NCBI GenBank assembly: GCA_965645245.1
Contig: OZ287073.1
Span: 2,542,001-2,606,000, forward strand
DNA length: 64,000 nt
Direction: 5' to 3'
Source of the DNA: Massalongia carnosa
Lineage: Eukaryota
Part shown: positions 620 to 50,200 of the stretch, piece after piece
How positions within the stretch are numbered: position 1 is the stretch's first letter
Layout of the letters: every line of letters starts with the position of its first letter
Made by a program: the position numbers and the translations under genes
The notes under the pieces: model-generated
What the model saw: only the letters and a program-made list of their open reading frames with translations
Told to the model about the DNA's origin: nothing
The model's database searches: none

Positions 620-3600
620 TTAAGTGAAGATATCTGCCACCATATCGTGAGTGGATACGTGCTGTATAGTGGCATAGTTGTCTTCAACGACCTCCCGAAG
701 ATAATGAAGCTGAATATCCATATGTTTGGACCGACTATGGTGCTCAGGGTTTTTTATCAAATCGAGCGTACCCTGGTTGTCGCCATTTAGGATAATTGGT
801 AGGTTCATATCTTTGGAGAGTTCAACTCTCCGAACCATCTAGTTGCCCACACTATATCTTTTGAAGCCTGGCACATGGAAGAATACTCTGCTTCCATGGT
901 GGATGTGACGACTGACCGTTGCCTCTTACTGGCCCATATAACTGCCCCGTTTCCTAGCATCAGAACGTGGCCATATGATGATTTTCTATCATGGTTATCA
1001 CCATACGCTGCATCAGCATAACTAGTGGGTCCGGTGTCATTGGGTTCGTAGGTAAGTGCCAAATTCGTGGTCCCATTCAGATATTTCATGAGATGGTCTA
1101 CCGCGTTTCGGTGCCTAATTGCTGGATCGTGCGTATATTGACTAAGCTTTCCAACTGCTTGGGCAATGTCTGGTCGCGTGTTGATCATCAAAAACATCAA
1201 ACTCCCTATCCGTTCTTGATATTCTAATTGGTTTGTCCTAGGTTCGTTGACGATGGCAGGACTGCATGCATCATAGTTGATCATAGGGGTAAGGACTGAA
1301 TTTGCTTTATCCATCTTATATTTCTGCAGGAAGCTGCGAATGTAAGATGATTGGTCAATCATTATTTTGTCTTTCTCGCGACGTATGCGAATCCCTAAGA
1401 TGAACTTTGCTGGCCCTAAGTCTTTCATATTATATTCCTTTATTAGTAGACTTTTGAGCTCCTTTATGGCTGTCATGCTTTTGGAAAATATCAGAAAATC
1501 ATCAACATAAAGGCTAATGATAACGTGGGTAGTGTGATTAACGAACACACAATTGTCTCCTGAGAGCGCTTTGAAACCAATGGATGTTAGATAATTGGTT
1601 ATCTTTTTATTCCATCCTCGGCCAGATTGTTTGAGACCATAGAGTCCTTTCAGAACGCGCAACACATGGTTCGTCAGATGTGGGGGAAGCACCAAGCCTT
1701 GGGGAGGCTCCATATAGATTTCGTCATCTAGGGAGCTTTGCAAGTATGCGTTTGGTGCGTCCATTTGCTCAATATGGAAGTTATATTTACATGCGAAATA
1801 TAGGAGCATTCGTAAGGATTCATACCTTAGGGTGGGTGAAAACGTGTCCCCATAGTCTGTCCCGGGGATTTGTTTGAAGCCCCTTGCTACTAATCGTGCT
1901 TTATAGCGGTCAACATGGTTAGTAGGGGTGTATTTCACTTTGAAGACCCATCTAGCGGTGATGATGTTCTTATCTGCTGGTCTTTCAACATATTTCCATG
2001 TATTATTGGCGGCGAGAGCATTTAATTCGTCTTGAATAGCAATTTTCCATTTGCGATGGTCAGTGCATTGCATGGCCTGATTATATGACTGCGGCTCGTA
2101 CACTTTGGATGGTTGTTTTGCTATATTTGCCCGGTCCCGGTCCTTTTTGTTTCCATAAGAGTTATCGAATTCGTATCGGTTATACACATCTTTCCTGCGG
2201 TTGGAACGTCTGGTAGGTGATGAAGAAGGGGTCCTATTTGTCTCCTGAGTTTGGTTGTTTTGGTGCTGGGCACCTGCATCATCTTGGTGCAGATTATCCT
2301 GAGCACCTGCATCATCATCCTGATGCTGAATACCATCGCCCTGGTGCTGATCACCATTAGTAGGAACTCCCACTTGATCAGTAGTAGGGTGGTTGGTTGG
2401 TGGTGACGATTCATTGTCATCGGAAGAGTCATCGTCATTTAGGACGACGGACGGGGATGATAGGCCTTTTGTAAGTAAGGATCCCCCCGGTCTTTTTTCA
2501 TCAAACTTTATTGAAGTCTGAATTTCCACCTTTTTTGTTTCCACATTGTATAACCTATATTGATTGCTTGAATGATATCCGGTGAATATTGCCTGATATG
2601 ACACATTATCTAGTTTGGAGCGTTTTTCCTTTGGGACATGCACAAAAGAGACGCATCCGAACGTACGAAGAGTGTTGATGTTAGGTCTTAGCCCGGTCCA
2701 AGACTCATTAGGCGACGTGGTGTTGGTGGTAGGTAAGAAGTTTCTGAGGTGGTTTGCTGCTACTGCTGCTTCCCCCCAGAAAGATTGTGGCAATTTGGCC
2801 CATACCAACATAGACCTTACCATTTGAACAATGGTTCTATTGAATCTTTCGGCGACACCGTTCTGCTGGGGCGTGTATGCGGTGGTTGGCTCCATACGAA
2901 TTCCTAATGGCTGAAGTTGCTCTGCGAGATATTTATACTCTTTGGCATTATCAGCACGAAAGCGAATGATTTTGAGCCCCTTTTCCAACTCGACCATTGC
3001 CTTCCAGTCTTTTATGATGCGGTATATGTCTGCCCTACTTTTCACACAGAAGAGCCAAGATTTTCGGGTATAGTCGTCTATCAAAGAAACGAAATAGGTA
3101 TGCCCACCTAAACTGGCCTTCTTATATGGACCCCAAACGTCAGTATGTATTCTATCGAGTGGTCTATTTGCCTTCGAGAAAGGAATTTTGCTGATTGTAC
3201 GGGTCATCTTAGTTAAATTGCAAATCTGGCACGGTAGGTCCAGAATTGCCTTTGAAAATTTCTTCCCTGTTGCTTGTTGAAGTCGTATATCATTGGGGTG
3301 CCCCAATCGTGTGTGCCATAACCAATATTGGGCCTCATTGGTGGCCTCATTGGTGGTCTCTTTGGATGCTCCCACTGGATCGCTATCGATGCAGTCAGGG
3401 GTAATAGGAGGAGGAGTTTTGGGTTGAATTTCGCCGGAGGAAAGCGAGGTCAGATATGTGGTTGATTTAAGGTTTGCCGGTAGTTCGGGGCCATCTAAAT
3501 CATCATTTTCATCATGGGCTTCGAGGGCCACATGAGATGTGTGGAGGAAGTACGCCCGTCCCCTAAGAATTCCGGTAGCGACCAAAGTACCATCCCTGAA

Positions 3601-4845
3601 AATCTCGACACCTCTCCGGTTAAATGAAACGTTCAAACCCTTCCGATTAAGGGCTGCAATTGATAGCAAGTTGACGTCTAGTTCAGGCACGAATAGAACG
3701 TTTGTCATCCGGATATTTTTCCCATCGATATTGGTGCAAATCGTACCTACTCCTACGGAGAAGAGTTTTTCGCCGTTTGCAATTCTAATGGTGGTCCGGT
3801 ATGGCTTGATTTGGGTGAAGATCGATTTGTTGTATGTCATATGCCTGGAGGCTCCTGAGTCGATTACCCATCCAGGTGAGTGTTGATCATCTTGCGCCAT
3901 CCACGCACTATTCTCACTATCACTATTCGATTCATCCTTTGCTGCTCGTGCTGCCCCCCTTCCTCTCGGTTTGTTTTTGGACTGCTTGTTATCACTCTTT
4001 GATTTTCGGTTATTTTCTGGTCTAGGTTTCACCTCATTAGGGTGTTCTTTGACCCATTTTTTACCTTCATCTGTGTTGTCCTGCCAGTCCCAGCAATCAT
4101 TGCTATTATGCCTCTTTGGGCAATGTGAGCATTTGGGGATTGCCTTACCCTTGTTAATGGCCTTATTGGCCGTCTCGGTCTCTTGCCCATCTTTTAGTCG
4201 TTGCTCCACCCGTTTTAGGCTTTCCAGAGTCTTTTCTAATGTGGGATCACCAAGGTCTTCAAGGATGAACTTCGCGGTGTCATAAGCTGGGTCCTTAATG
4301 GCGTTCATGAGGGTCATGGCCACAGACAGATCTGATGGCTGTTCTGAAGTCTTTATATCTGCGATTTCCATCGCAAGGTTCTGCAATTCATTGGCGACCT
4401 CATCGATGGGTTGATCGACTGACATTTCATATGTATAGAATTTTCTGTGAAGCACACATATTCTGCTTTTGGCTTTGACTCCATGGACGTTCCTCAATGC
4501 TGCCCAAACATCCTTTGCGGTCTCCTTGTTCCTAACAGTGACATATTGAGACTTTTCTATATTGCCCCTGATCCAGAGCTGTGCCTGAGTGTCATCAGTA
4601 AACCATTCCTCATAGTCTTTTGGATGGGTGACAGGGTCTGGAGAAGAAATGGCCCCGTTTACTATCCTCCACATCCTTTTAGATTTGAGAAGAAGTTGCA
4701 TGTCATCGGCCCAGGTCAGATAGTTGTTGGACCCAAGCTTCGGCTCTACTTTATAGTCTCCTTTTCGAATGGCTTTTGAATATGATCCATCAGGGGTTGT
4801 GCCCTCTTTCGCGGGAGCTGCGGAATCGCTCTCTTTTCCAGACAT
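620..4845 (-). CDS. Copia gag-pol polyprotein with one frameshift in the RNase H C-terminus (~820)
   Basis: ORF 805-4845 has CSHCPKRHNSNDC knuckle, WVIDSGAS protease, WHTRLGH/HTDVWGP/NGVAERFNRT integrase, YKARLVARG/LYGLKQ/LYVDD RT and YADA RNase H. ORF 620-838 supplies DNQG...SKHMDI...MVADIFT. Confidence 0.95.
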
Positions 4846-4967
4846 GGTCCAATAATAGGAGAACTGATGGATGGAACGAAGAGAAGTATGGCTTCGTAAC
4901 TTTGAAAAACAACAGAATAGATAGATTAATTTATGCGGAAGAAAAATTGCTTTCCGGGCTCATAACC

Positions 4968-8202: not shown

Positions 8203-9600
8203 CTATCGCTCAAGGTCCAAGAGATTTGTTGGCCACTCAGCGGGGTTCTGATTAACAAAGGCTTTTGCCTGTTCTCTGAAATCAATGCATATGCAGCGGA
8301 TTCTGAGGTTGAGACGCGCCTCAACAGCAGCAACAAATTTCTCGCAATCAAGACACATTTTCCTGCTAACTAATATCGTTGCTTTACGCAGGGATACAGG
8401 CGGCTGCGCAAGGTAGATTCCCTGAAGAAAGGCTGTAATCGTTCTGCTGTCAATCTCATATTGGGCCGTTTCCAAGACTTCGTCATCGAGAAAGACGTGC
8501 TTGCTGAAAAGATAGGCTATCAACTGTTTCTCGGCGTGAGAGGCAAAGAACTTCCCCAGACGCCTCTGATCGATTTCAGGACTTGCTGGTAGTTGGTGCT
8601 CAACTAACCGACATATTCGGAAGACCTCTTCAGTCCAGTCTCCCCGCTAACCGTGATCAATTCCTCTTCATGGTGGCCCCATCCGCTCATAGCGTCGACC
8701 GGTGGGAACGGAAGCCCTTTGTCTAGTCGGGCTATAGTCTTGGATTGCCTAGAGATAGTGAAGCTCTTGACTGACGCAGACAGTTCTGATGACGAGGTTT
8801 GAGGTGATTGATGGAAAGAAAATTGGGAATAATCCGGATCAATAGAATTTGCTGTGCGAAGAGGGATCAGAGACGGGGCGGATTGATTTTGGAGCAACTG
8901 GACAATTGCTTTGCGCTCCTTATCGGCGTTGTAGGTATGTTCCTTGTAGACTGCACCAACTCTTCTATCTCTTTCATCAGAATTTCTGTCACTAGGAGAG
9001 GCAAGGTTGGAAGCTGTGCGTCCATGGTGATCGCTAAGAGTCCTGTCTGCACCATGTCTGAGTAAAACTTGGGCGTTCTCATCCCTACCCCATAGAGCGG
9101 CTTCCATTAATAGAGTCCTTCCTCTCCTATTACGTCCATTGACTTTGGCACCATTATCCAACAAAGAGCCACCATGCTTGGTGATCTTTCTGCAGCAGCG
9201 TAGTTTAAAGTCGTGTCTCCATTCTCATCCATGCCCTGTATGAATATATGCTGCTCGGCTGTTGTCTTGAGGTAATTCTCTACTTCTCTGACGTGACCAA
9301 GGATGCAGTCGGATATAGTGCAGTCAATTATCTTCTGCGAGAGTGTACCGTCCGGATCAGTTGAATTGTGGCCAGGTAGTGTGAAGATTGTCATTTCTGT
9401 GGCATCGTTGAAGGAGACCGATTGCTCATATTCGTCCATGAGATTCAAATCTGATGCTAGACTTCCAGCAAGCTTTGTAATTTCTTCGGGTTCTGGGTCC
9501 TGCGGAATTCCTACAGTCACGAATCTCCCCCTTTCCTTATCAATCTCGTATGCCACATGCTGTGTTGTTCGACTAAACGGAAAGCTGAATTGATAACCAT
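8203..9600 (-). pseudogene. Ankyrin-repeat protein with C-terminal zinc-dependent cytidine-deaminase-fold domain (SsdA/DYW-like); two frameshifts, 5' end uncertain
   Basis: Ankyrins GDTTLNYAA and GRTLLMEAALWGR. Reading across the ~8640 frameshift gives DWTEEVFRICRLVEHQLP...GKFFASHAEKQLIAY...ILVSRKMCLDC (HAE + CxxC). Confidence 0.8.
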
Positions 9601-9786: not shown

Positions 9787-12700
9787 CGAGGTGCTTAGGG
9801 ACAGTCCCCCCCCGACCGTCCCCCCCCCCCCCCCCCTTGTGTAAATCTTTGCTAGTAAACAGCCATTTCACTGCTTATCCAGGGTGCGTACAAGCTAGTA
9901 ATGCAACTGCCAACAGCACACTAAACTCTTTTCGGTTTAAATCGTATGACGTGTTATTGCTACTAATAATTACCCTACTCGGTCTAATAAAGCATACCCT
10001 CACCCACCCCCACCCTCACCCTCACCCTCACTTACCATTTGCCCTTGCCCTTGTCCTAACCCTTTGCCCTCCCTAGATCTCCCCTTCCACTTATGCTATA
10101 CCTCATATTATATATTTTACTACTCCTCATCGCGATGGAGTTCGATCCCACTTCTTTGGATGCACGGAAGCAACATGCCATTGCCCTTCTACCCCCACCT
10201 CACCTCCTCCCTCCGCAAGAGAATGAGTTATTTCGTCTTGGGAGGAGGCAAAGACTCGTCTTCAAGACTATGCCTTCACCCAAGGCTTCGCGTTGGTCAC
10301 AGAAACTCACGATAAGAAAAACCATTTAATTGTATTAGACTGCACACGCCACCACAAAAGAGTTAGAAACACTAGAAAGGTAGAGGAGAAAGACCGGGTG
10401 CGAGCCAATACCAAAGTTTCGTTCAATGAGTGCCCTTATCGCCTCCGTCTCAAAAAAAACAAAGACAATGCATGGAGACTAATAGTCACTAACTCCGAGC
10501 ACAATCATGAGATGGCCACTGATCCCTTTGCATTCAGAGAACATCATAGTAGGGACCCTGATCGAACAGATGCCCTAGATCAAGGGAAGAGTCTCCGTGC
10601 ATCGTCAACCCAATATGGCCAAGCAGCGAGAATATTAGGAATCCAAGGACTCCGTCTGTCGAGGAGCGATTATTATAATCTCGCTCATTCGGAGGGAGCT
10701 CACACGCCTGAAGAAGAGCTTCTTTTTGCCTTGGGCTCGTTGAAAGACAGGGGCTTTCATATACGGTGTAAGGAAAAATATATTGTTAAGAATAATGTGC
10801 GTGAGAGACGGGTGATAGAACAATTTTTTTTTTGCAATGCAGAGCAAATTAGGCTGGCTCGACGTTTCGTGGGTGGGTTTTTATTAGAAACGGATGCAAC
10901 GTTCAATACTAATAAATTGAACTTGCCTTTATCCGTTTGGTTGGAATCACTAACACCGACCTTTCGTTTCCCGTCGCTTATTGCTATATAACTTCCGAAT
11001 CGGCCGAATGTTTCACTTTTATTTTCGAATGTATGAAAGAGTTGATTTTTCATGATGATTGCCCCGGGCCTGGGGTTATTCTCGGGGATTTTTGCAGCTG
11101 GGTTGACTGTAGCCATGCAAAGAAAAGCTAAAGCTCCGGCAATTGATCTCGATGCTGCATTGACCATTGCAAGAGAGGTCGCCGAAAATCTAAACCAATC
11201 AACGATGAAAGCGGGCGAGGAGAGATGCGTTTTGCAGCTGTGCACGTGGCATGCGGCCGAGGCAATAAAAAAACGACTGATCAAGGCAGGAAAATATCCC
11301 CAAGAAGTGCGCAAAAAGCTGGAGACTCTGATTTGGGATTATATAAAATCCCCCACTATTGATGAGTTGGATGAGAGACGAAGAAAGTTGCTGAATGAAC
11401 ATCATCCCGCAGAAAAGGTTAGTAGTGATATATCAAATTAAATTTCAAGCGAGTTAGGGCTACTGCTAACGCTACCTCTTTCGCAGGATTATCTCTTGAA
11501 TTTCTATCAACGTCAAGAAATTCAATTCGTGCATGCATATACTACTAAACTCCCTAATTTAGGCGCACACAGCACACAGCGTTCAGAAGGTCTACATTCA
11601 TTGCTTAAAAATGTGACCAATAGAAATACTCCTATAAGACAATCGGTGCAGAAAATATGTGATGCGGTGCGGAAAAAACAATTAGATCAGGAGATTTTGT
11701 GCAATCAACAGCGAATACGCAATCCTAGATTGATCGATAGAAATGCTTTTACGTTACTCATTGGGAAAATTACGCATCATGCCATTGGCCTCGTTTCAAG
11801 AGAACTCGATGCCGCCAAATCATTAGCTGAACGAATCCTTTCTATTGTCCCTGATGGTGGAAGCTGTGTTTATGATTGTGAATTGCCTTTAAGGTACGGT
11901 CTCCCATGCAAATGCTGGTTGTATAAATGCATCATCGACTCGGTCCCTATTCCCGTTTCCCTCATCCACCCCCGCTGGTTTTTGAATGGCCCACCTTATG
12001 CGGTCTCTTGGCAAATGACCTTCGATTTCGCTCGCGGCTCGGAGCCCGAGGTCGAAAAGATCGTCGATGAGGTCGAAGGGACGGGAGAGATTGAGGCGGA
12101 TAAGGATGAGGTCGAGCTCGAAGAAGGCGTGTTGAGTGAGGATAGATTTCGCCGCGGGGGCCTTGATTTGCTACATTCTGTGGCATATCAATCTATTGAC
12201 CTGCATCAATCAATAGAAGATTCTCATCGAAGGGAGGAGTACGCTCGCGAGCATGCTCACATCGTTGAAAAGTTCAATAAGAAATGGCAAAAGAAGGAGC
12301 TGGTAAGACCTCTCATCCCCACCACATTCCCCGACGAAATTCGGCCCAAAGAAAACCTCATGTATAAGAAAGGAGGGAGTCGTCGACGTGCCTACACTGG
12401 TCGCGAGGCAGCTGAGGCTAGAGAAACTGAACAGCGACGTACTAGGCGAAGGGACTATTGAACAAGGGAGGAGGCTTAGATATAATAGATTGCGTGCTGG
12501 GGGCGACGATGAGGTTGAAGGTGAAACAGAAGGTAAAATTCACGATGGTGGAAAGTTATTGCGCTCGGGTCGGCTAATATTGGGTACAATAGGTTTAGGA
12601 GAAAACTTAGTTATGGAGAGAATCAAAAACGCGTCTATCGTCTCCGACGACGATGACGAGGTGCAGTATATAAGCACTCAGCCCATTCTCGGTCGTTCTA

Positions 12701-13283
12701 TGGATCCTATGCTTCCTTCGGATGACGAAAATGATATTATTCTTACATCAGAAGCCTCGTCGGATTCGCTCGAAGATATTGACGATGTGCTTGCCAAGCA
12801 TAGTCAAAAAGCCCTACCTCAGGCAGCGCTGGCTCCATCTCTTTATAGTCTTAGCCAAAACGTGCGCGCCAGTCAAATTCTCCCTAATTCCTCGGCAACA
12901 ACGCGAAGGTCTCGGGGTGTGGCGAAGAAATCAAAGGCTCAGTTGGAGTTGGAATCTCAGCAAAGAGTCGAGAAATCAGTCAGACAGGCTAGGGCTCAAG
13001 CGAGAAAGGAAACGGCGATGAGAAAGGTGGCTAAAACCATGAAGCCTAGAAAAGATGATGTATCGCAATTGGCTGACGAGTTTTTGGAGTTGAAGTCATC
13101 GCAATCGGTAGATTTGTAGGTGTGGAATACACTTAGTCAGTAACAGCAACGTTATTAATACGTAGTGTAACTGCTAGCTTGTATGTACCCTGGATGAGTA
13201 GTAAAATGGCTGTTTACTAGTAAAGATTTACACAGGGGGGGGGGGGGGGGACGGTCGGGGGGGGACTGTCCCTAAGCATCTCG
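9787..13283 (+). mobile_element. Mutator (MULE) DNA transposon
   Basis: ~120-bp TIRs (CGAGGTGCTTAGGGACAGTCCC.../...GGGACTGTCCCTAAGCATCTCG); perfect 9-bp TSD TGGTGGCTC at 9778-9786 and 13284-13292. Confidence 0.95.
10135..13119 (+). pseudogene. MULE transposase (frameshifted; probable intron ~11418-11487)
   Basis: CPYRL...HNH FAR1-like DNA-binding region, DATFNTN, CTWH, STQRSEGLH and SWIM-like CELPLRYGLPCKC spread over several frames. Confidence 0.9.
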
Positions 13284-13525
13284 TGGTGGCTCAGGGGCCT
13301 AAGGGATAGCATGGCCTTATTAGGCCTAGTTTGGGCTAGCTCGCCGCACATAATGTAATATTAGCTACTGAGATAGAGCTTTTCTTCTAGACATTCATAT
13401 TATCAAGAGTTCACCTCTATTCACGAACCTCACTAGGTTCAACAGAATCATCACTAGATTCTAAAATTATGGTTCACGAATCAATCCAGGTAACTATCAG
13501 CTCGGCCGGATGAGCACTCAGTACT

Positions 13526-15119
13526 CTAAACATAGCTCTTCTTTTGTTTGAGTATGTCTATGAGCTCCTTGATTTGCTCTCCCAGCTCATCCTTTTCCTT
13601 CTTTAGCTAATCCATCTGCCGTTCTATCTCCTCCCTTTGCCTTTCCTCCTTCTCCTTGTTCTCCTCCATTTACCGTTCCATCTGCTGTTCCATCTCCTCC
13701 CTTTGCCTTTCCTCTTTCTCCCTTTGCCTTTCCTCCTCCTTGTTCTCTTTCCTCTGCTGCTCCATCTCCTCCCTTTGCCTTTCCTCCTTCTCCTTGTTCT
13801 CCTCCCTTTGCCGTTCCATCTGCTGAAGGAGCTTGTCCATCTGCTCCTTTTGCTCGTCGAACAGTTTTTGGGCGCTGGCAGGAAGAACGGGAGTCGCGAA
13901 ACCTTCGGCATCTCGACCCTGCGAGGGTTGTTGGAAGCCTCGCGAGTCGTCCTCCAAGTTCATCGTACCTGCAGAGAATAATAGTGTAGAGGAGACTAGG
14001 AGAGCTGCAATTGCTTTCTGAAGCCGTTTCAACAGTTTTGAAGCGTGTATCACTAGGATATTGCGAGCAAATTGTGGAGGGCCAGCAGGCTCTCCTCGTG
14101 TGCAATGTCGAAATGCCGAATATAATGGCGATAATACGTCCATTTTTCTTCTTCAACCAAGGCATAATGCCCGTAGAGGCGGGCATCTTTTTGATCGTGT
14201 GAGATAGAATAGACAACGATCTTGCCAAGCAAGCTCTCGAATTGCTTGTCCTCTCGGTACTGATTCGCCTTTTGCTCGAGCTTGAGAAGCGCCTTGACCG
14301 CCACACTGCAGCTGTGCATGTTCTGCCGGTCAAGTCCCCTGTTGCCACACTCGACCTCGCACATCAGAACGGGAAACACATTTCATCGGTTGATCGCGTC
14401 AAGTTTTCAAAGGATGTGTAGTTGGTTTATTTTTCATTTTCTGATACCGTAAAGGCGGAATGGAGGAAGCCAATGGCCAGGTCAGGTTCAGGCCGAGGTC
14501 CTGCCAGAACCCAACTCTCATGCCACTGCGCTCTAACTTGATCGGTAAAATCTTTGAAAATATTTGCTTCGTCCGTTAGATGTAGTGCTTTGATTGGCGG
14601 CAAAATCAGCGTCGTAACATCTCGGCTTACCATTGCTTCATTTGCATTCTGGCAAAGGTCGATCACCTGGAGTATTTTGTCCTCGGAATAAACAGTAGGA
14701 GAGATGGCCACGCATTCCATATTTCGAAGATCTTGGCAAGCCGCCTTGCTGTCTGGAGAAACAAGTTCTCTGCCTTTGATATAATTCATGTCCAGACCTT
14801 GTGTGAAAATGTACTTTTCGTACGATTTAGTAGATTGCTCTGGGAAATTTCCATCCTTACGGCTCTGAGAATAGCTCCGGGATTTTTCATCCTTGCTGCT
14901 TTGAGAATGATCCGACGTTCGCGGTCGTTTGTTGGGGTTGTTCGAAGACATTGCATGAGACTCTGCAAAGTTGTCGGGCCAGGTATGGTTCGCGGCCCAG
15001 TAACTGATAGGATCGTCTTTTTCTCTCTCTTTCTCTTCGCTTTCTAGGGCTTCGTGCCCTTTTTCCAGCCTCTCAAAAATGGGACTGTTTTTTTCAGGTA
15101 CAGTTTTCTGGAACTGCAT
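13526..15119 (-). pseudogene. Fungal PD-(D/E)xK-like (DUF7924-type) protein with C-terminal coiled-coil repeats; stops and frameshifts
   Basis: PEPDLAIGF...FPVLMCEVEC...DRQNMHSCSVAV...YSISHD...LYGHYA...YYRH; tail of repeated EMEQQ(M/R)..ENKE.EERQRE units. Family name recalled from the motifs, not searched. Confidence 0.6.
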
Positions 15120-15285
15120 CGTTTGCGGTGTTTGCCGTAAGGCCTTACACCTTTTCGGATAGCGATTATTGGTTTCCTCCGATCGCGGTTTTATGGAAAA
15201 AATCCTCCTCCTTTTCTTCCTAGATGATTGCTCGTGTGAGTTGCTTTTTGATGGTGATGGTAGCTGATGATGTTCTTCATTCTCC

Positions 15286-16295
15286 TGTAATGGGCTACGA
15301 GACCAGTAGGCTTATCACGAGCGACACTGATCTCGAAAGGGGAAATGCTCAGCGTGAGAGGTGGAAGATAGCTACTACGTGCTGGTCTCCGAGAGTATAT
15401 GTGATCCAAAGAACTAATGGATGTGGAAGTGCTTAGACCAACAGATCTCGTCCGAGACCCAAACGTAGGTTGTTCATAGAATAAAGACTAATTGCTAACG
15501 AATACTACAGGATTCGTTCTGGTATTTATCCTACTCACCCCAAGCCTATAGCCTTGGGAGCCTTGGAACCTTAGGAGCCTTGCAACCCACTCCTGACCTT
15601 ATCGCCTTACATCTAACCATCCCTCAGGATCCATCTACGAACTCGGCGTTCGCTGGATCATCTAGTCAGCCTCGAGCAGCCTTCTAGACCTTCCCTTGCA
15701 AGGTAGAACACTTCTACCTCCGGCTAGATCCCTCACTACATTGCTAGCCTGCCTCTAAACATAAAGTCTAGACGCCGAGGCTATGTAGCTTCATTTCGCC
15801 GTCACCACTACCAACGTAGCGGTGGAAGGTTACCTCCGACTGAATCTCTGTCTACACTGCGGACCTGCCTCTAGACACAAGGTCTAGACCACAAGGTCAT
15901 GTAGGTTCACTCAGCCGACATCACTACCAACGTAGCAATAAAGGTGGAAACTGAAGTTTACACCGGGGAGGCCGAGCTCAAGCTGCGTCCAGCTAGCCGT
16001 GCCTCCTGCTACAACTCTTGATCCATCATGAGATCGAGTAGCTCCGAGTAGGCCAGTAGATTCCATATAGAGTTCACGGCTTCTCCACAGGAGTTCGCCT
16101 TACTCCATGGCAATCTACCACCACGGCCTCGACAGGTGTTTGATCTGTAAGCAGTCTAGAACGTAGGATTCGGAGTTGTGTGGCAAGGTGGCGTCGTGTC
16201 AACCTCGACGGCTGTGCGACTAAGTACTACGGCGCTAATTAATCCCGCAACCGCCGTAGGCGATCACGTATCCTTCTAGCGCCATCCGTATTACA
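15286..16295. repeat. ~1-kb solo LTR
   Basis: TGTAAT...ATTACA; TSD TCTCC; near-identical inverted copy at 27997-29023. Confidence 0.92.
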
Positions 16296-18297: not shown

Positions 18298-20262
18298 ATG
18301 CCGGTGGAACTCATCATCGGAGGCATAGGTCTTGCGAGCCTGCTCTCTCTGTTCCAGACCTGCAATAGAGCGTATGATGTTTTCATCCGATCTGCAAATG
18401 ACATCGGTAAAGACGCACATCTACTAGGTGTGCATCTTGAAGTTGAGAGACGGAGGCTGCAGCTCTGGGGCAGATATTTTGGGATTTCTCAGGCGCAGGG
18501 GTGCCAATTGCTATTGAGAGAATTATACGAGACGTAGAAATTCGTTGTTGCGCGTCTCGACGCTATCAAATTGTTATTGGACGACATCGACCTAATCATG
18601 ATTCGGTACGGGGTCAGAATTTGCGAGGCTGGTCAGGATTCAAGCCCAGATCCAATGATTGGGCTTCAGGATCTAAATCTGGATGATATACGCAGCTGTG
18701 CCGCGGTGAATATTGCGGAAGTCAAACGGACGACGATGGAACGTTCGATCGTCGTCTCAACATCACGGCTAGGAAAGCTCCGTTGGGCACTGAGCGACAG
18801 CGTCAAGCTTAGGAGACTTGTTGATGACTTGCGACTGTTGAATGAGAGCCTGTGGATTGTGTTGCCCGCAAAAATGTGGATTGCGCTGGCAAAGGGTTTA
18901 CCATCTGTGGTGCTTCAGGGGATTTTGGATCAGGCAATGCTGTCAAAAATGAAGAACAAAGCGAAACGGAACAAAACAACGGAGTTGCTCGCTTCATGCG
19001 CAGATTTGAGGCGAGCTGCCTTAACCGCAGTGGTGAACGAGTCGAGTCCATCCTTTGCAAATGAATTCCTGCTACCGTCAACCAGTGTGACGGATTTGGT
19101 GAGTTTCAAGTCTGGAGATACCAAGAAAGCCGGCCAGAATAGATTCATTGCCTCAGTCGCAAGGGCGGATGGAAGCAATGAACCCGCGATTCTGGAATGG
19201 AGATATGTGGACCGATCATTAAATTTGTTGAAACTTGAGACGGTTGATTGTTCTATAGAGGGAGAAGAGCGGCTAATATACATTCAGCTGACTAAGCATA
19301 GAAATTCCCAGAACTAGGGCAGTGCAATTCAACAAAATTTCAATGACATGAAAACTATACGATCGCGCATCATGACGCTTGCTGTGGTACTTAGCTCGGA
19401 GAGATCAGCCGATTTCGGGCTTCTCAGATGCATTGGCTACTTCAAAGACACGAAGTATCTTGCAGAAAAGTCTATTGAGAGATATGGTCTTCTGTTTAGG
19501 CCTCTAGCTATGTCAAGACTACCCCAACCATCAAACGCTGCATTGCCAACATCAATATCGTCTCGCCCTTACTCTCTCCATGAGTACATAAATGGCACAA
19601 CGACGCCTCCGTTCCTGGGTGATCGGTTCCAGATTGCTACGGCTCTCTGTAATATCATTCTTCAGCTTCATGCGTCTGATTGGCTTCACAAAGCAGCCAG
19701 TTCATCAAATGTTCTTTTCAGCCTGTCACCGACTTATTCATCATCCTCAGACCTCGATCCATCCCACCCATTCCTGCTAGGTTTCGACTTCTCGCGTCCT
19801 GACCGCCCTACCACACCCTCGCTGGAGAATCCTTTGGACCGAAGCAGCAACGATTACCGCCACCCGTCCTTGTGGCCGTCTGATTCTTCTCCGACCTCAC
19901 CGCGATTCCGCAAACAGTACGGCATCTATGCGCTCGGAGTTGTGCTTCTCGAGATTGGTAACTGGAGTTTGGTTGGGGCCCAGCCAGGTAAATACAGGGA
20001 CTCAAGAAAGCCACAAGTCTGGCAAAACCGCTTACTCTTGTGTGCAGAAAGCCTTGGGTCTAGATGTGGCAGAATATATCAAGTGGTCGAAACTTGTTTG
20101 ACGGGTCGAGTCGTTGAACACGACTCGGTAGGGCAGGGTATTCGTATGAGTGAGTTTGAGGCAGAAGACTTCCCCCAAGCTTCTTTTCTGTTTGACGTTG
20201 TGTACAAGCTTGGTAGATATTTGGGTGAGATTATCAGTGTTGATGTTATACTAAAACGTTAA
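18298..20262 (+). pseudogene. HeLo (HET-S-type prion-inhibition) domain + pseudokinase, MLKL-like; one frame with two in-frame TAGs
   Basis: N-terminus MPVELIIGGIGLASLLSLFQTC...LEVERRRLQLWG...KLRWALSD..KLRRLVDDLRLLNESL. Kinase fold LRCIGYF, WLHKAASSSNVLF, LLGFDFSR, YRHP, IYALGVVLLEIG. ORFs starting 18235, 18571 and 19348 share one frame (TAG at 18535 and 19315; the second may lie in an intron). Confidence 0.85.
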
Positions 20263-20451
20263 TCTAATAGATAAGGTTAGGTAATTGATGACTGCTTGAC
20301 CAGAATAGACTAAGGGTAGTTTAGTTGATGGATGTTCATAAAACACCCACGATAGACAATAATCAAAATTATTCTCTTCAAAAATACTCGTACATGCATC
20401 AAGTGATTAATTCACTTCAACAATCTGTGCGGTTTGGCTTGCAAGGCACTT

Positions 20452-23400
20452 TCACGGGGACAATGTTTGCATTTTTCGAACCCATGGATAAGGTAAGTGC
20501 GTAGCCCAGGCATTCTTCACTGCCAGAGGAAGTGCATGCGTTGCACCTTTACTCCTCAACTGCATGCAAATATCGTTTCTTCCAGCTTCAAAACACTCCA
20601 CCAAAAATTTCTTTGAAGCCCGATTTCCCCAGAGGTATGGGGGATCCGAGACAAACAAAACATCCAAGGGGTTGGCTCCTGAGGAGTTGAGAAGATTTGG
20701 GTTTGCGCCGGCTTCCAGAAGCGCAGTTGCCATGTCTTTGCTTCCTACAAAGGCTGCAACATGAAGTGCAGTGTTGCCGTGATTATCTCTGCTGTCGATA
20801 TGGTGCTGTTTGGGAAATTGGCGCAGCAGCAGATTGATGGTCCTTCTCCTCCGAGAACAAGCAAATAGTTCCGTGTCGAGTATGTCTCCACCGGAATTTA
20901 TACCGCAGGCCATCATAAGGGCGGAGTATTTGTTGGTCTCGTCTACGATAAAGAGCAAATCCAGGGTCTCTCGGATTTATAGCAAGCTGCAGAGGTACTC
21001 TACCGGCTTCTCGCCCACAGTCGTCGACCAAGCGATAAGGTGGCCGAACAACTATAGCTCTGCAAAGGCCATGCCTGTCAGACGGCTTGAGAGTAAAGTC
21101 TGGCGCTCGGTGTTACGTAGGGGTTTTGCGAAGAAGACGATCTGCAACTGCGAAATTACAGTTAGCCACTGCCGTCATAAATGCAGTCATGCCATCCAAC
21201 TCAGTCCTGTGGTCCAGGAGAGAATGAGCACCGTGGTCGAGAAGGATACCGGCTGACTCCGCGTTATTCGAGAAAACTGATAATAGATGTAAGGTGCTCC
21301 GTTGAAACCCGTCCATACTGGTTGCGTCACCCCCGTAGTCGAGAACGATGTGTAAAATTTTAGGATCACCCCTGACTGCAGCTTCGTGAACTAGGCGATG
21401 TTCGACCCAAGCTGGATATGAGAGCGGAAGTTTTGCGTGCTTAAGGCTGCTTGGATCTGCGTCTTTTATAGTCGCCATGCTCTTGCTGAGACCGTTGAGT
21501 ACAATTTCTAGGATTTCTCTCCGACACTCAGACACAGCCTCTGAGACAGGGTATTGATAAAAAGCATCGACTTCAGCCCAATCACGGAACGGAATGGGTG
21601 TCGACAACAGTAGCTTAAGAGCCCTCTCTTGTTCTTTGGGTTTGGCATAATTATTCAGTATTCGCAGATCACTCCATAAAGTCATAACTGAAGACGCATC
21701 CTCTCTAGAAACCTTAAATTCCGGTTGTCTCGAAAACCTGTCAAGGAACTGCGATCTTCCAGGGAAGCAAGCAAATCTCACAGGCGTTACTTTATCAAGA
21801 ACAAGCATATTGATATCCGCCCCTTTTTTCAAGAGAGCGTCTACATATATCTCATTTCCCATAGCCATTGCCCAATTGAGAGGAGGCCCTTTCACATAGA
21901 AACTTTTCAACCCGCCAAGAAAACTTGGTAGCGCCCTTTCTTGAGTTACTTGCGCATTGATATCGGCACCGCGTAGGAGGAATTCTTCCAATACTCGTGT
22001 AGGGTCCGGCAATAAGCCAAGCCAATGCAGCGGAGTTTCACCGCCAGCATAAACCAAATCGACATCTACGTTAAGGTGCAGCAGTGCCAGTATTTTCTCC
22101 TCCCTCCCAACACGACAAGCCATGAGCAACGGTGTCACTCCATCGGCGTTCCGCACGTTCTTGTCGATTTTCAGGACCTAAGTGCAGTATTCTAGGACTA
22201 ATGTATCGGAGTTTTCCGATCCAGCGGTTAAATGCAATAACGTGTTTTCAAAAAACTCGTCCTGTCTTGCAGGTGATCCATCAACCATCGGGGAAAATTG
22301 CATTGACAGATCCGAGGTCGTCTCATACAAATCGCAAACGGCGTTGAATTTCGTGTTTACAAAGCTTGCCGTAGAGCCGTTGTAGACTTTACTTCTCGCC
22401 ACAGCTACTGTTCTGGCTAAGATGGGATCTAATTCTGCCAAGGCGAGGTAAGCCTCGGATGAAACGCCAGCTGCAAACAACACGGTTATTGCCAGCCATT
22501 TTCGAAAAGGTATTTGAAGGGAAAGATCTCGATTTATAAACAACGAGTGTCGGCAGAGCCAAACACAGCAGTAATGACTTCCGGACATGGCAGCATCTTC
22601 GAGGAACTTAAAAGCACGAGCAATATCTCTCTTGGTGCCGAATCCTGAGATAGTGGTCAAAAAGAGTTGGTAGGCCGCCTCACCCTTTCGAAGAACGGCT
22701 TTGGATGAAGTAAGATGTAGAGCTCGTGGAACTGCTGATTTGATAAGTGCTGAATTGGGTTGTGATGGCTGTGTTAAGCAAGTGTGTTTCAAACTTTCGC
22801 TACATTGCTGTAACTCCTTAATCAAACCGTCAGGCGTCAATCGATGCGGATCCATGTCTATTTTACTCAAAGAATTACACTCGAGGCACTGGTGAAGATG
22901 TTGAGTTCCGTTGTCATCTTCGTTTATGGTTAGGAGTTCCTGAGTTAATCGAGAACGCGTGGCTGAGTTGAGCGGATGTTCACGCCCCATGGTAAAGAGG
23001 GGTATCTATTTTAAGCGTCAAAATCGCCAATCATAAGGAGACAATGAGACCACGTTTTTAGTTTTAAAAAAGTTCACCATAACATACACCAAAGAATGAG
23101 GTCACTCACGAAGTTGGGAACTACACTTTTCGAAGTTGTAGATGAGAAGAAGGAAAAGATATTTAGAAGATCCGGCTCTTCCTTTTCTTCCCCTGACGAT
23201 TCCGAATTGCTGCTACGATGGTGACTTGATAGTTGCTCGATAACATTTAAATATTCGTTCTGTGATTGCAGACGGACAGGATCTGATTCGAGATCCAATT
23301 CGCGGTCTCGAATCATACGGGCATTTTGCGATAGGAACGGTACAATCTCGAGTGTGGATTTTTCTATAGCCTCTAGCCTTTTTATGGGGTCTTTCAGCAA

Positions 23401-23680
23401 AAGGCTCGCTAGTAAACGACTAAGGGGCAATGAGTTTTCTGACGCAGTGCTGTCACCAAGGAGAGCGGAAAGACAATCGGTGTCTTTCAGAAACTACATC
23501 GCTAACAGTATTTCTTCCTGAGACTATTCCGTCGGTATGATTTCTCATTCGTCCATTGGGTTTCTGCCATCTATCGAGAGGCGCAACAATAGCAGTCCAA
23601 AGGAATACCAGTCGGTTGCGGCAATTGCATCGACATCTTCGAAATAGTCCGGGCACTGGCCGCCTCTAAAACGTCAGATT
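20452..23680 (-). pseudogene. Protein kinase (C-lobe only retained) - Sel1-like repeat - multiple ankyrin repeats; 5' end replaced by a Copia
   Basis: ATDWYSFGLLLLRLSIDGRNP (subdomain IX, ~23560-23620) and LLLKDPIKRL (XI). Sel1-like AAYQLFLTTISGFGTKRDIARAFKFLEDAAMSG. Ankyrins GVTPLLMAC, GETPLHW, GNTALHVAA and others. GT-AG intron ~23007-23077. Several in-frame stops. Confidence 0.8.
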
Positions 23681-23693
23681 AATCTCAAAACCC

Positions 23694-26600
23694 CTACAGT
23701 AGAGTAGATGACAACCTCTGGGGCGCGCCTTGCTTTAGACCGTACAATGCTCGTAATAGCAATAGTAGAATATTAACAGCTCCAGATCCTGACCCAGGCC
23801 ACCCTTCAGGTAACCTACAGTAGGTTGGTTCATCAATAGGGCTATTTGCGAATGCATTTACCGCATCGTATTGCCGTGTTTCGAGATCAAATGCTGCTAG
23901 GATTGCCATTAACGCTCGAAAGATTCATGCAGCCAATGTTGCTGCGAATGTATCTTCCTCGGTGCGTTGAAGATCACCCCTAGCGCATAAGCTTGATTTG
24001 TATTTGACTAGATAACCTTTTTCATCGAATTTATTTGAATACCCATCTCGTTGGTATCGGTGTTTTGCCAGCAATAACAGCTGCTTCGTGTCCGACTTCA
24101 GTCCAGGTATTCTTAGCAATAAGGGCCTGAACCTCTACCTTCATGGCCAGCATGAAGCCTTCTGCATGCGGGTGCTTTAGCATTTGACGATAATGTTCAG
24201 GTTCGGGAGGTAGGCTATCTCTATGAAACCGGGTGCTTAGAACCAGCGTGTTATTTTTGCTAGATTCTTTGCTAGATTCTTTATTGGTGATGTAATAAGA
24301 ACTTGCCATGATGTGGGCTGAGAATTCAGCATGATAAGAATTTAACTCGCCGTTATTAGCATCTGCTAACACTGTTGCGTACGTTTCCTTTCGTTGATTG
24401 GGTATGCGGAGTCTTCCCACCCCCTCAGGCAAGATATTATTCGTATCGAGACTGGAGTTGATATCTTTTGATGCTTTTGGTTTAGCAGCTTTCTTTGCTT
24501 TCGTGCTTTTTGTGAATGATTCGGACGTGGTTGGTGTTGGAAGGTAAGTTCTCTCTTTCATTTGTGAAGAGACCAATTCCTGCACATTCCCATCTTGCGA
24601 TTCCATGCTTTCAACATTTTCCCCCATGTTTTGTGTGTGATTTCCCTCTCCTTCTCCTTCATCAGAATCTATTTCTGTGATTTGAGTGATAGGATCTAGA
24701 TCATGAAGCTCGTAGGTTGTTTCTAGCATTGGTTCTTTGATTGCTTGCAACAAATCAATGTCATGAGCATCGTAGCTTATGCTTTCGTCAAACATCACGT
24801 CTCTTGTGCGAATAATCTTTCGTTGACTAGGTATCCAAACCCGAAAGATATTCCTTGCTTCATAGCCCATGAGATGACCGATATGTGCACGCTCTTGTAG
24901 CTTTTGTTTCTTTGAAATTTGCTTATTTAAAGTGTAGGCTCTGCACCCATACCGGCGAAGATGACTCAGATCGGGTGGATTTCCTATGACAAGCTCATAC
25001 GGAGTCTTCCATTGATGCTTTCTCATAGGTGTTCGATTAGCTATATAACCCGCGGTGCGCACGATTTCTGGCCAAAGATAGATTGGTAGGCCAGCGTCGA
25101 TTCTCATTGCCCGAGCTTTCATGGCCAATATACCTCCCTTTCGTTCAGAGTGGCCGTTTTGCTCAGGTGTATCGGGTGTTGATGATTTATAGGTAATGCC
25201 TTTCTCAATCAGCAGATCTTTGAACTCATTTCCCAATGAACGTTCTCCGTCTGGTCGAATAAATACTACCATTGATTTAAAGCGAGTCTCGATAATATTG
25301 ACAGCTTCTTTGACTATCCTAGCAGCGTCAGATTTGTGAGCGTGGGTAAATACCATATTAAAATCGGTTGCATGGCATGCGAAATGAGAGACCCATTCAT
25401 CTTTATTCATAGCAGTGTTAAGCAGCATGAAATCATATGTGATGCTATAAAAAGGCTCTTTTGCTGATTCTGCATTTTTCGATGATCGAGATACGATACG
25501 ATGTGCTTTAGATAATGCACAAGGCTCGCATTCATTTGTCTTAGGAACTTCCTCACTAGATATTTTCACCCCCTTAGCGGATGTCTCGAGATGCTGTATA
25601 GCTTCATTCGAGGCATGTGCTAAGATTTGATGCCATTTCTGTGCTGTTTCGGTCTTGATGTTAGCCAGTTCCGTCTTCTTAACTTGGAAAGGCTGATACT
25701 TGTTTTGCTGTGTTGTCCTCCATGAGATAATGTCCGTTGTGGCGTTTAACGTAAGCAATAGAAGTTCCATCTCTATGAAGATGAAGTTTCCAATTATCAA
25801 AATACACCCCTTTGATATAGAGCAAATCTTGAGAGACTAAATTAGTCATGAAATCTGAAACATATGCGACGTTTGACAGAGTCATGGATTTGGGACCGGA
25901 TGGAGTTGGCACAGTTATGTATATTGTGCCATAGCTCTCTATTGCTAGGCGTTGTGTGCCAGCAATAAGATACTCTCCATCGGCGTTTCGTTGATATTGA
26001 TATCTTTCTTTCATGGTGCTATTGCACACGTGGCTGTTAGACCCGTTATCCAATATCCATGAATCTCTGATCGTGTAGCTATCTGCTGAGAAAAATGATG
26101 CAGTTTTTATCGATGTAAACGTTCCGAGCTCCTTCTCCTCAGTAGCCTTTTTATTGTTTCTATCCTTTTTTAAATCCATTTGCTTGGAACGTTGAAGAAG
26201 TCTTTCCACCCTAGCTTTGGTTTGTGGATCTTTCATCTTCTCATTAACTTAAGCTTGGGTGGCAGGGTTTGGAGACCAGTTTGAGGATCGTTTCTCTGAT
26301 ACTAGATAGTAGCAGTTGTTATACCAGTGAATCATCCCGCAAAGACATGGATCGGGTGTTTTTTGCCCATTGAATGTCGCTCCATGCCCTTGTCCTTCCT
26401 TCTTTTTCTCGGATGCAAAGGCTGAATGCGTGTTTTGATTGATCTTTTGCGTTTGATGCATTCGAATATAACTGCGAAATTCCTCCACTATTTCGTAGAA
26501 TTCTTCTTCTATCCGATTCTTTAAACCAATCAGATAAGTGTTAGCAAACGCAGCCTCTTTGGTGAGAATAGCCATAATGAAATCACGAATAGGTCGTGTT

Positions 26601-27553
26601 CCTGAGACTTCACTGATTCCGTATGCTTTTCCCTCGGCATAGACCGTCTGCCATTCTTCAATCCATGTTTCCATATCTTGCTTGCCAGGTCCTTTGCAAA
26701 GCTTGTGATATTTGTTCTCTATCTCGATCGAGCGAGCCTCGTCGCTTGGTGCCAACCGTTCTTTCAAGGCTCGAAGGAGGTTCCATGGATGAGCATCTAC
26801 TTTTTGAATATAGGTTGCGTTCTGAACTGTCACCGTCTCTTGAATAAACGTGATAAGATCAGCGTACGCCTTTTGCTGTTTTTCATACTCCCCCAACCGC
26901 AGTTTGTAAATATGTGTTTGTACTTTGAAAACTTCATAGGCTGCTGGGTCGTATGTGCTTGGATCTATTGGTAGGATGAATACCGGTTTGATTGGCGGTA
27001 GAACATCTAACGGCTTTGGTGTAGTCTCTGGGTTTACTAGGTTCCAGATCCCACTATTTGTTGCCCGAGTCCGAACGAATAAGAACCAGGTATCCCAATA
27101 TGCTGGTTTACCGAGCACTATCTTCCGTGTGGAGCTCATGATTGGCTTTTAATTTTGTTCTTTTTTATGCGAGGTGATGTAGATATGCGAATTTAATTGC
27201 AGGGACTTTTGATCTTACCCGTTTTGGTATCTTCTCGATTTATCTGCCATGCTTTGGTTGACTGTGAGCTCTTTAGAACGAGGGATGCGATGCCGGGCTC
27301 ATAACTATCAAGCTGGTTATCGCTTAGATATGCGTAAGCTTTCCAGCTTATTTGTTAGGTAGGTTTACGTTCTAAAAGAGACTCGTTTTGGATTTGATTA
27401 ATTGATCTGGTTTGTTGAAACGCGCCTGGATAATGGGAGGCAGGTTGTCTGGGACGATAAAGGTACAAGAATAAGTGCTGAATAGCTGAATATTTATTAC
27501 ACCGAATAGCTACCTGATAGCGACTGAATAGATAAAATACATGAGAAATCAAC
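23694..27553 (-). mobile_element. 3'-truncated, degenerate Ty1/Copia element (5' LTR ~27306-27553, gag, PR, INT, partial RT)
   Basis: PBS-type GGGCTCATAAC at 27295-27305; WILDNGSNSH, WHQILAH, EQNGHSER, RWVF, LYGLKQ; stops and frameshifts; ends within RT. LTR outer boundary approximate. Confidence 0.9.
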
Positions 27554-48962: not shown

Positions 48963-50200
48963 CCCATCAACTACTCCTCCACCTTCCGGCCCTAACTTCG
49001 CTTCAGCTTTCAAGAACACATCAAACAGTTTCAACTCTGGTGGCTTTCAAAACATATCTGAGCCTGTTGAAATGGTGAGGAATGTGCTCAGGTGGGAGCT
49101 CAAGTCGAATCTTGAGCTCGACCATCCCGATTTCATAGCCACATACCTCGCTGAAATCCCACAAGTCGACGATGCAGCAACTGCCGTCTTCAAGAAGTGT
49201 TGCGATGGAAAGGACCCCTTTTACACGACTGGCTACAGATGGCGTGGTTGGGAAGACGGTGATGAAAAAGGCGTCCAGCGGTCGCTTGAGGGATGCATCA
49301 GCAAATTTATGAAGTTTCTTGAGGAGGCCAGCATCGAGCCACCAAGCCAACGCCGGTTCGTGCCATCACCCAATACCCCCGTCCCGGGAGCTGTGAAACG
49401 GAAGCCTGACCTGTGTGTCGCCACATTTGCTGGAGAAAGCATCGGTGTGCTCGCCAAGCCAAACAAACAGATAGCTTCTTGGCGTCAGGTACTTGTTGCC
49501 ATTGAACTCAAATCTTCTGGACAGGACGGTTTGGAGAAGACATGGTCAGATGTCATGAAATACGCACGAGAAATTTGCAGACACCAAGATTCCCGCCGGT
49601 TTGTCCTTGGACTCACCCTATGTGGATCCACCATGCGGCTTTGGGAATTTGATCGACTGGGCGCCACGACTTCAGTGGCATTTGATATCCATAAAAATGG
49701 CCCTTTCTTTGTGAAGACCTTACTCAGCTTCCTTTGGATGAACGATGGACAGTTGGGCATCGACCCGGACTTGATGGAGGTAGACGGTCAACGATTCGTC
49801 AAGATTAATAGAGACGGCAAAGAAGAGCGACTGATCATCACCGAAACGCTGAGAGCTCATACAGCGTGCATAGCCGGCCGAGCGACAACTTGCTGGAAGG
49901 CATACCGTGAGGGAGATGACTCCAAGAAGCCACTTGTAGTCAAAGACTCTTGGCAATACGTCAATCGACCAGAGGAAGGCGAGCTTATTCGCAAAGCCTC
50001 TGCCGCTGGTGCCACTAACATCTCTCAATACTACCACCATGTAACGGTCTTGTTCAACGAAAAAGAAGACTTGATTCGCTCAAATGTTCGAAATGGCATA
50101 TCAACTAAAGCTGGTAGCAACCCGTTCACACAACCCGGTTTCTTTTCACCTGAAACTACCACATCCAGCAATGCTTCCGGTTTCCCTTTAGTGGTTAAAT
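48963..50200 (+). pseudogene. FunK1 kinase N-terminal part, inverted relative to its C-terminal part
   Basis: KRKPDL, VLVAIELKS, YAREI...QDSRRFVLGLTLCGSTMRLWEFDRLG, GRATTCW, VVKDSWQY. 49754-50200 is an inverted copy of 48195-48962 without the LTR. Confidence 0.88.

Follow-up and report, generated by a model that had tools for sequence, protein, structure and literature searches.

We examined a window of 64,000 nucleotides from Massalongia carnosa (assembly GCA_965645245.1, contig OZ287073.1, positions 2,542,001 to 2,606,000 of the forward strand; coordinates below are window positions), in which the stretch 18298-23682 holds two neighbouring genes. Gene 1 (+ strand, 18298-20262) is, as judged from its sequence, an MLKL-like HeLo-pseudokinase, and gene 2 (- strand, 23682-20452) probably combined a kinase with a Sel1-like domain and ankyrin repeats. 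On balance, we lean towards reading this stretch as a defunct copy of a pair of clustered genes found repeatedly among filamentous ascomycetes; in intact relatives, the kinase-Sel1-ankyrin protein would drive the release of the HeLo domain of its MLKL-like neighbour through phosphorylation. The domain make-up of the genes, their homology, their decay and the recurring neighbourhood of kinase and HeLo-pseudokinase genes are directly supported. The window was compared with homologous proteins (numbered P0xxx), with metagenome contig loci (L001 to L019) and with contigs from other sequencing runs (X3, X5, X6 and X7).

Gene 1 runs in a single frame from end to end, from the ATG at 18298 to the TAA at 20260-20262. 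An earlier interpretation of the letters without database searches, here called the sequence-only reading, had proposed that an N-terminal HeLo domain is fused to a kinase fold in this gene, and both parts were recovered. The first two pieces of gene 1 match HeLo (PF14479) with E-values of 7e-11 and 3e-8, both above the Pfam gathering cut-off of 23.2 bits, and residues 1-223 of the family profile match the HET-S/HET-s structures 2wvo and 2wvn with an E-value of 3e-11. The C-terminal piece matches DUF7580 (PF24476) with 24.0 bits, which is under the cut-off of 27 bits, a value passed by the relatives P0014 (30.2 bits), P0021 (36.4 bits), L013 (39.5 bits) and L009 (31.8 bits). A search among 5.8 billion proteins returned 20 hits, mostly HeLo plus DUF7580 proteins of approximately 600 amino acids; the full-length ones are 46-55% identical to gene 1, and one partial hit is 86% identical. 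The named orthologue among them is P0014 from Oidiodendron maius, which carries the UniRef title "protein kinase domain-containing protein".

The likeness to MLKL comes from the C-terminal half of the family profile. Its best matches in the PDB are five MLKL pseudokinase entries (E 3.5e-4 to 5e-4, 22.4 bits for the top one), with BRAF (7e-4), IRAK4 (1e-3) and LIMK1 close behind in the same search. In the profile alignment, the family sequence LHKAIQSSNILF stands over MLKL LHGKIRSSNFLV and GFDFSR over GFELRK; LHKAIQSSN is aligned to LHGKIRSSN of MLKL and GFD/E to GFE, and an SL is conserved in the activation loop. The MLKL-like substitutions claimed in the sequence-only reading are hence backed by the best solved-structure match, and the two motifs quoted there, WLHKAASSSNVLF and LLGFDFSR, are both present in gene 1. 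Regarding the fold, the AlphaFold model of the homologue P0012 is of moderate quality (mean predicted local distance difference test score, pLDDT, of 60), and a Foldseek search with its C-terminal half found at least 500 kinase chains at E<=0.001 with a probability of 1.00 and template modelling scores on the target of 0.53-0.72. Among the 34 family sequences showing the HRD motif, the Asp position is occupied by A (15), G (10), D (4), S (4) and N (1); at the Asp position of DFG, 19 of the 36 sequences showing that motif have E, 16 have D and one has S, while GF[DE]FSR is kept. Gene 1 of the window reads HKA at the catalytic motif and DFS at the DFG site. The statement that gene 1 lacks HRD and DFG is therefore correct for the HRD Asp of the window copy, but the DFG Asp is kept there, and four of the 34 family sequences retain the HRD Asp as well. 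With a predicted kinase fold and a lost catalytic Asp, the domain qualifies as a putative pseudokinase, and two activation-loop residues, S499 and S508, do not vary across alignment A1, which comprises gene 1 of the window and 15 other sequences. Because of the HET-S and MLKL profile matches, the kinase fold of the P0012 model and the residue counts at HRD and DFG, we call gene 1 an MLKL-like HeLo-pseudokinase.

Gene 2 lies tail-to-tail with gene 1. Its stop codon (20452-20454) and that of gene 1 are 189 nt apart, which matches the roughly 190 bp estimated before. The ankyrin repeats are strongly supported (Ank_3 with an E-value of 3e-20 and 70.3 bits, Ank_2 with 66.7 bits) and identify the product as an ankyrin protein, as had been proposed. 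The Sel1-like repeat recognised in the sequence-only reading fared less clearly: in the window, the single Sel1 (PF08238) match stays below the cut-off of 30.7 bits (E 0.023, 15.7 bits), but the same match recurs in P0052 (E 2.3e-4, 22 bits) and in L009 (E 0.026, 15.6 bits), also below the cut-off. Homologues of the Sel1-ankyrin part are approximately 760-900 amino acids long and 45-50% identical, and the model of one of them, P0178, is an all-alpha solenoid with a pLDDT of 81.8. Upstream of the Sel1-ankyrin exon, and parted from it by a putative intron, lies what had been read as a kinase C-lobe. Its read-through translation P0173 is a continuous sequence, in which DWYSFG and KDPIKR are about 70 residues apart; an intron covering the three stops in 23547-23494 was considered and rejected, since the read-through across them is continuous C-lobe sequence. 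The match to Pkinase falls on the expected profile positions 176-254 with an E-value of 0.16. When a profile was made from the C-lobes of the partner kinases of L009 and L013, the first open reading frame (ORF) of the relic ranked first of the 696 ORFs of the window (E 0.002); it was not picked up by a control profile built on three different kinases. Furthermore, 9 of 19 positions of the alpha-F motif agree between the relic and the L013 kinase. The C-lobe is thus more weakly supported than the sequence-only reading states. Today gene 2 has no N-lobe, no HRD and no DFG, and its 5' half is lost; as a truncated Copia element borders the relic at about 23690, we take N-lobe and catalytic core to be gone.

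We infer that the relic and the Sel1-ankyrin exon probably form one gene in the window. This is suggested by two related loci, in which a kinase plus Sel1-like gene (with ankyrin repeats too in L013) stands head-to-head with a HeLo-DUF7580 gene, the latter being one uninterrupted ORF in L009 and intact except for a 45-nt intron in L013. At L009, a canonical intron of 86 nt (GTACGT ... CTAAG ... ATAG) joins the kinase exon in frame to the Sel1-like exon, at a junction equivalent to that of the 104-nt intron of the window, and the Sel1-like domain matches the window family in hhalign with a probability of 89 and an E-value of 2.2e-6; the contig ends before any ankyrin region. At L013, 117 nt separate the kinase ORF from a downstream ORF with Sel1-like and ankyrin parts, and this second ORF is collinear with the window family over 506 columns (hhalign E 2.7e-21). 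The two kinases are 32% identical (E 2e-27) and carry the motifs VAVK, HGDVKPSN, DFG and APE in L009, and IAK, HSDLKFEN, DFG and APE in L013. The kinase-Sel1-ankyrin architecture proposed beside the HeLo-pseudokinase thereby finds its backing in these two loci. An interim reading of the partner family as one without kinase, taken from the N-termini of ORF-called homologues, was dropped given L009 and L013.

It is somewhat unlikely, in our judgement, that the partner is instead a stand-alone Sel1-like plus ankyrin protein of approximately 850 amino acids starting at Met 22990, with the C-lobe being an unrelated scrap beside the Copia element; such a protein would act by binding, as a guard, inhibitor or adaptor of the HeLo-pseudokinase, and not by phosphorylation. 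Several observations count for this protein and against a single gene. All database homologues of the Sel1-ankyrin part begin at that domain, and, in the representative search, all eight that include the N-terminal domain (P0023, P0025, P0026, P0045, P0052, P0089, P0090 and P0111) start at most 35 residues from it, while those of the eight opening with the motif (A)T(R/K)xR all have a Met 8-24 residues upstream of the motif. In L013, a TGA that no single intron removes parts the kinase ORF from the Sel1-ankyrin ORF, the latter has its own ATG, and the N-terminal 190 residues of that ORF alone match the window family weakly (probability 17, E 0.0015). The Pkinase match of the relic is not significant on its own, its best kinase match in the PDB has an E-value of 1.2 (an entry named "ScRIPK kinase protein" is found at 1.2-1.3), and a search for longer homologues of P0173 found none. 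P0173 aligned to the DUF7580 profile over 14 columns only and gave no match with the L001 kinase, a tblastn search against all loci gave nothing below an E-value of 0.1, and the stop-free ORF piece of 128 amino acids had sub-threshold hits only in a protein atlas search. However, the homologues in question are contig-level gene calls (sources lgn, ena and jgi), which we assume to be intron-blind, and to this we attribute the start at the domain, although it fits a stand-alone gene as well. Moreover, the clean canonical intron of L009 joins kinase and Sel1-like exons, a phase-matched intron (GTGAGT..TAG) lies at the same junction in the window, and the relic ranks first on the L009/L013 kinase profile. 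Hence, we keep to a single kinase-Sel1-ankyrin gene as the more probable reading.

The adjacency of the two genes was found at other loci. The closest metagenome homologue of gene 1, L001, is 45% identical over residues 6-640; immediately downstream of it, the other strand carries a homologue of the ankyrin region of the window (38% identity, E 2e-37). Furthermore, the longest contigs of three homologue pairs are equal in size across two independent hit lists (49163 for P0012/P0178, 34650 for P0010/P0182 and 20868 for P0015/P0183), and because of these identical sizes the members of each pair very probably share a contig. As L001 and L013 come from one metagenome, the independence of these loci is assured only in part. 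An active-looking kinase is the divergent neighbour of the HeLo/DUF7580 gene in L009, L013, L014 and L018=L019. By their translations, the partner kinases of L009, L013, L014 and L019 keep the beta-3 Lys, the alpha-C Glu, the catalytic Asp, the Asn, DFG and APE, which makes the partners of the intact loci active-looking. Separate homologues in other genomes or a dead partner kinase in intact copies would have refuted the sequence-only reading, and neither was observed. L001 holds, in addition, a second gene of DUF7580 type (18153-16316, - strand), convergent with an active-looking kinase gene at 13050-15970 (+ strand) that has tetratricopeptide repeats (TPR), one in-frame stop and then three ubiquitin-like repeats.

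The recurrence of such pairs could also arise without any direct functional link, when HeLo, kinase, ankyrin and patatin genes accumulate in a shared, fast-evolving, transposon-rich compartment or are neighbours only by descent; we consider this unlikely. The window is indeed dense in Copia, Gypsy and long interspersed nuclear element (LINE)-like copies and in pseudogenes of FunK1 kinases, partner type and orientation vary over the paralogues, and the window, L001 and the three same-contig pairs are one orthogroup with at least 46% identity, so that the pairing within it could be plain synteny. However, L001 and the window have only these two genes in common, and their flanks differ. Kinase neighbours recur in HeLo-pseudokinase lineages that are only 26-47% identical, even after rearrangement, and the divergence of HeLo-pseudokinase and kinase is similar within the pairs, with 31% and 32% identity between L009 and L013, and 47% and 42-45% between L014 and L019. 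The Sel1-like domain is common to the partners in the window, L009 and L013, and in P0021 a DUF7580 domain is fused to an active-looking kinase.

Both genes are non-functional in this genome: gene 1 has suffered a nonsense codon, an insertion, a lost codon and a lost stop, and in gene 2 the kinase core is gone and the remainder is interrupted by stops and a frameshift (Table 1). The TAG inside the HeLo domain is also present in the X3 and X6 contigs. The second stop of gene 1 lies within a 114-bp piece whose 38 codons have no counterpart in any of the 15 other members of alignment A1. This piece was considered as an intron and rejected: it is absent as DNA from the X3 and X5 contigs, which skip exactly 19221-19334, its ends are AA..CA, and a 6-bp AAATTT stands duplicated at both flanks. 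With its terminal inverted repeats of 12 nt, it is an insertion resembling a miniature inverted-repeat transposable element (MITE). The sequence-only reading was thus right that both genes carry stops, but the second one of gene 1 is not in the coding sequence proper. The summed contig depth of X5 rises to 1224 in the bin 19120-19303, compared to approximately 70-180 for bins further upstream and to 409 for the one containing the other end of the insertion, and this jump suggests a high-copy MITE; within the window, the element occurs once. Compared to X5, gene 1 of the window lacks 3 bp after 20080 and a further 1 bp after 20219. The AAG that X5 has after 20080 restores a conserved Glu codon, and its T after 20219 gives the normal C-terminal end of the family, so that the 1-base loss has removed the normal stop. 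For gene 2, X5 reads TCC (Ser, the residue of the homologues) in place of the TAG at 22180-22178, and it is put back in frame by the loss of 4 bp at 21114; hence, a more intact version of both genes is found in run X5. The X6 and X7 contigs diverge into unlike sequence after 19891 and 19928 and have no cover past approximately 20040 except two matches of 30-40 nt. Repeat-induced point mutation (RIP) as origin of the stops was rejected, since the TpA/ApT values (0.56-0.73) and (CpA+TpG)/(ApC+GpT) values (1.13-1.37) in three gene parts are not RIP-like by the usual thresholds. The stops had been called consistent with the joint decay of a functional pair. Both genes are dead, but joint decay needs no functional link, because transposons and further pseudogenes abound in the window, and it would be equally expected in such a stretch.

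Table 1. Features of the two-gene locus and the adjoining element in the Massalongia carnosa window.
Feature	Position	Strand	Remarks
Gene 1, HeLo-pseudokinase (putatively MLKL-like) pseudogene	18298..20262	+	one frame, stops read as X (P0001)
HeLo domain	18298..18873	+	PF14479; family profile to 2wvo/2wvn
TAG nonsense codon inside the HeLo domain	18535..18537	+	Q in 13 of 14 covering homologues, K in one
MITE-like insertion, 114 bp, in frame	19221..19334	+	bears the second TAG (19315-19317); missing from other sequences
Degenerate kinase (DUF7580, PF24476) domain	19335..20259	+	24 bits in Pfam; MLKL best PDB profile match; P0012 model
Sel1-like plus ankyrin exon	20452..23005	-	first Met 22990; Pfam Ank, Sel1
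Breaks in the Sel1-ankyrin exon	TAG 22180-22178, frameshift ~21114, TAG 21054-21052, TAA 20979-20977	-	reading frame
Putative phase-0 intron, 104 nt, GTGAGT...TAG	23006..23109	-	links relic and Sel1-ankyrin exon in frame, with no stop
Kinase C-lobe relic plus linker	23110..23682	-	read through as P0173; Pkinase E 0.16; partner-kinase profile E 0.002
In-frame stops of the relic	TGA 23676-23674, TGA 23547-23545, TAG 23526-23524, TAG 23496-23494	-	read-through
Truncated Copia element (gag, integrase, start of reverse transcriptase)	23694..27148	-	SH3_retrovirus, gag_pre-integrs, Pol_BBD; adjoins the relic

The variable intactness would also suit a present or former allorecognition (heterokaryon incompatibility) locus. 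At such a locus, a mismatch between the alleles of two tightly linked, polymorphic genes would be lethal, and broken or absent alleles would belong to the natural variation. The insertion, the stop at 22180-22178 and the frameshift are all absent from X5, X3 has two variants at 22178-22179, and the near relatives P0027, P0028, P0029 and P0043 (81-94% identical) have fragmented ORF calls. In addition, fungal incompatibility is known to involve HeLo proteins as well as clusters of two genes (PMC12881547). The variation appears only as decay and not as balanced alleles. We consider such a locus very unlikely, and it would be compatible with, not exclusive of, a kinase-driven pair.

For the intact relatives of the pair, we infer a sequence of sensing, phosphorylation, HeLo release and killing. 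The repeat part of gene 2 would sense a cue, and its active kinase domain would phosphorylate the pseudokinase in its conserved, Ser-rich activation loop. Phosphorylation would free the HeLo domain for membrane insertion, and the membrane-inserted domain would kill the cell, as in the step from RIPK3 to MLKL. A complex prediction of the ankyrin part of P0178 (residues 1-640) with the P0012 pseudokinase (255-598) scored 0.13 versus a mark of 0.34. Several results speak against the cluster as proposed. The HeLo gene of L001 has one stop, and its partner is truncated, with an internal deletion and without the kinase or Sel1 part. The partner kinases resemble the tyrosine kinase (TK) and tyrosine kinase-like (TKL) groups, with LRRK2 and Pto as best PDB matches for L009 and Src/Fyn for L013, and are not specifically RIPK-like. 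Orientation varies, the genes being convergent in the window and in L001 and divergent elsewhere. Oidiodendron maius, which has P0014, showed no orthologue of gene 2 among 18 close hits. Finally, a clade consisting of L002, L003=L004, L005=L007, L008, L010 and L011 has a divergent upstream gene for a patatin-like phospholipase and no kinase; for L006 and L012 of the same clade, no neighbour was identified. Patatin is a known fungal death-effector domain. In this patatin clade, a FAD_binding_4 gene lies downstream in all loci but L002.

Taken beyond this locus, the proposal would state that filamentous fungi have a kinase-driven, necroptosis-like death switch as a gene pair, in which a repeat-bearing (Sel1, ankyrin or TPR) active kinase phosphorylates a clustered HeLo-pseudokinase without NOD-like receptor (NLR) and without amyloid, with patatin in the partner slot in some lineages. 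We regard this generalisation as a tentative possibility and rather doubtful. If it is true, the logic from RIPK3 to MLKL would be older than animals, because the fungal switch needs no NLR and no amyloid.

Among the closest known systems are the fungal fusions of HeLo or HELL domains with kinases or pseudokinases, which are the same in make-up as gene 1 and were already noted in PMC12881547 (Cell Death Differ 2025); the passages on these fusions name no family, partner kinase or gene cluster. The RIPK3-MLKL signalling logic is likewise summarised in the corresponding part of that article. As in RIPK3-MLKL, the putative fungal executioner consists of an N-terminal helical membrane-disrupting domain and a pseudokinase, whose best solved-structure sequence match is MLKL with agreeing HxxIxSSN and GF[DE] motifs, and an active-looking TK/TKL-like kinase is the candidate activator in the fungal loci. 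In contrast to the animal system, the match to MLKL is weak (E 3.5e-4), the N-terminus is by sequence a HET-S-type HeLo domain and not the four-helix bundle of MLKL, the partner has Sel1-like and ankyrin repeats with best PDB matches that are not RIPKs, and the fungal genes are clustered. Plant MLKLs (those of Mahdi et al. 2020, and Pm13) reportedly have a HeLo-like N-terminus and a pseudokinase and are said to play an immune role. They belong to another kingdom and are likened here by description only, and we know of no clustered activating kinase for them.

Two-gene death clusters of fungi include het-S/nwd2 and HELLP/PNT1, which are amyloid-templated, and gasdermin with a repeat-bearing protease (described in part of PMC12881547). 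Common to them, according to the same source passages, and to the pair studied here is a repeat-bearing sensor (with superstructure-forming TPR, ANK or WD40 repeats) encoded beside a membrane-targeting executioner, whereas the signal proposed here is phosphorylation by a kinase and not amyloid templating or proteolysis. Pfam found no NACHT or NB-ARC domains, as typical for NLRs, in either gene. On the proposed reading, the cluster is a sensor and executioner pair in which a kinase replaces NLR/amyloid or protease. The literature searched, whose accessible part excludes most subscription journals and supplements, contained no description of kinase-repeat partners clustered with HeLo-pseudokinases and no paper on DUF7580, and the paper found there for fungal MLKL has, in the portion available, no kinase passage in its published version. 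The cluster of kinase and HeLo-pseudokinase is apparently undescribed so far.

The surroundings of the pair are rich in mobile and broken genes. The truncated Copia element adjoining gene 2 has a reverse transcriptase-like ORF at 23694-23924. Another Copia copy at 808-4959 (- strand) is an uninterrupted gag-pol ORF of 1384 amino acids with all expected domains, and from its sequence the element may be active; none of the remaining Copia, Gypsy or LINE-like copies of the window is intact. Both strands of 47274-50235 carry broken copies of the FunK1-type "fungal protein kinase" (PF17667). At 8206-9224 (- strand), two overlapping ORFs in different frames match ankyrin (Ank_2, E 3e-5) and then SsdA_C (PF24120, E 2.3e-14), the C-terminal domain of a bacterial single-strand DNA deaminase toxin, which is unusual in a fungal genome. 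An ORF at 10227-10988 (+ strand) has matches to DNA-binding domains of AFT/FAR1 type (E 1.3e-8 and 1.3e-5) and is, as a guess, the remnant of a Mutator-like transposase.

The window copy itself is a pseudogene pair without own function, and its value is that of a pointer to intact loci. An intact pair elsewhere may be the fungal counterpart of the RIPK3-MLKL death switch. A clustered, active-looking kinase with sensor-like repeats provides a concrete and testable activator candidate for the fungal HeLo-pseudokinases and, if the proposal is true, fungal regulated cell death would be tied to animal necroptosis at the signalling step, beyond the fold of the executioner.

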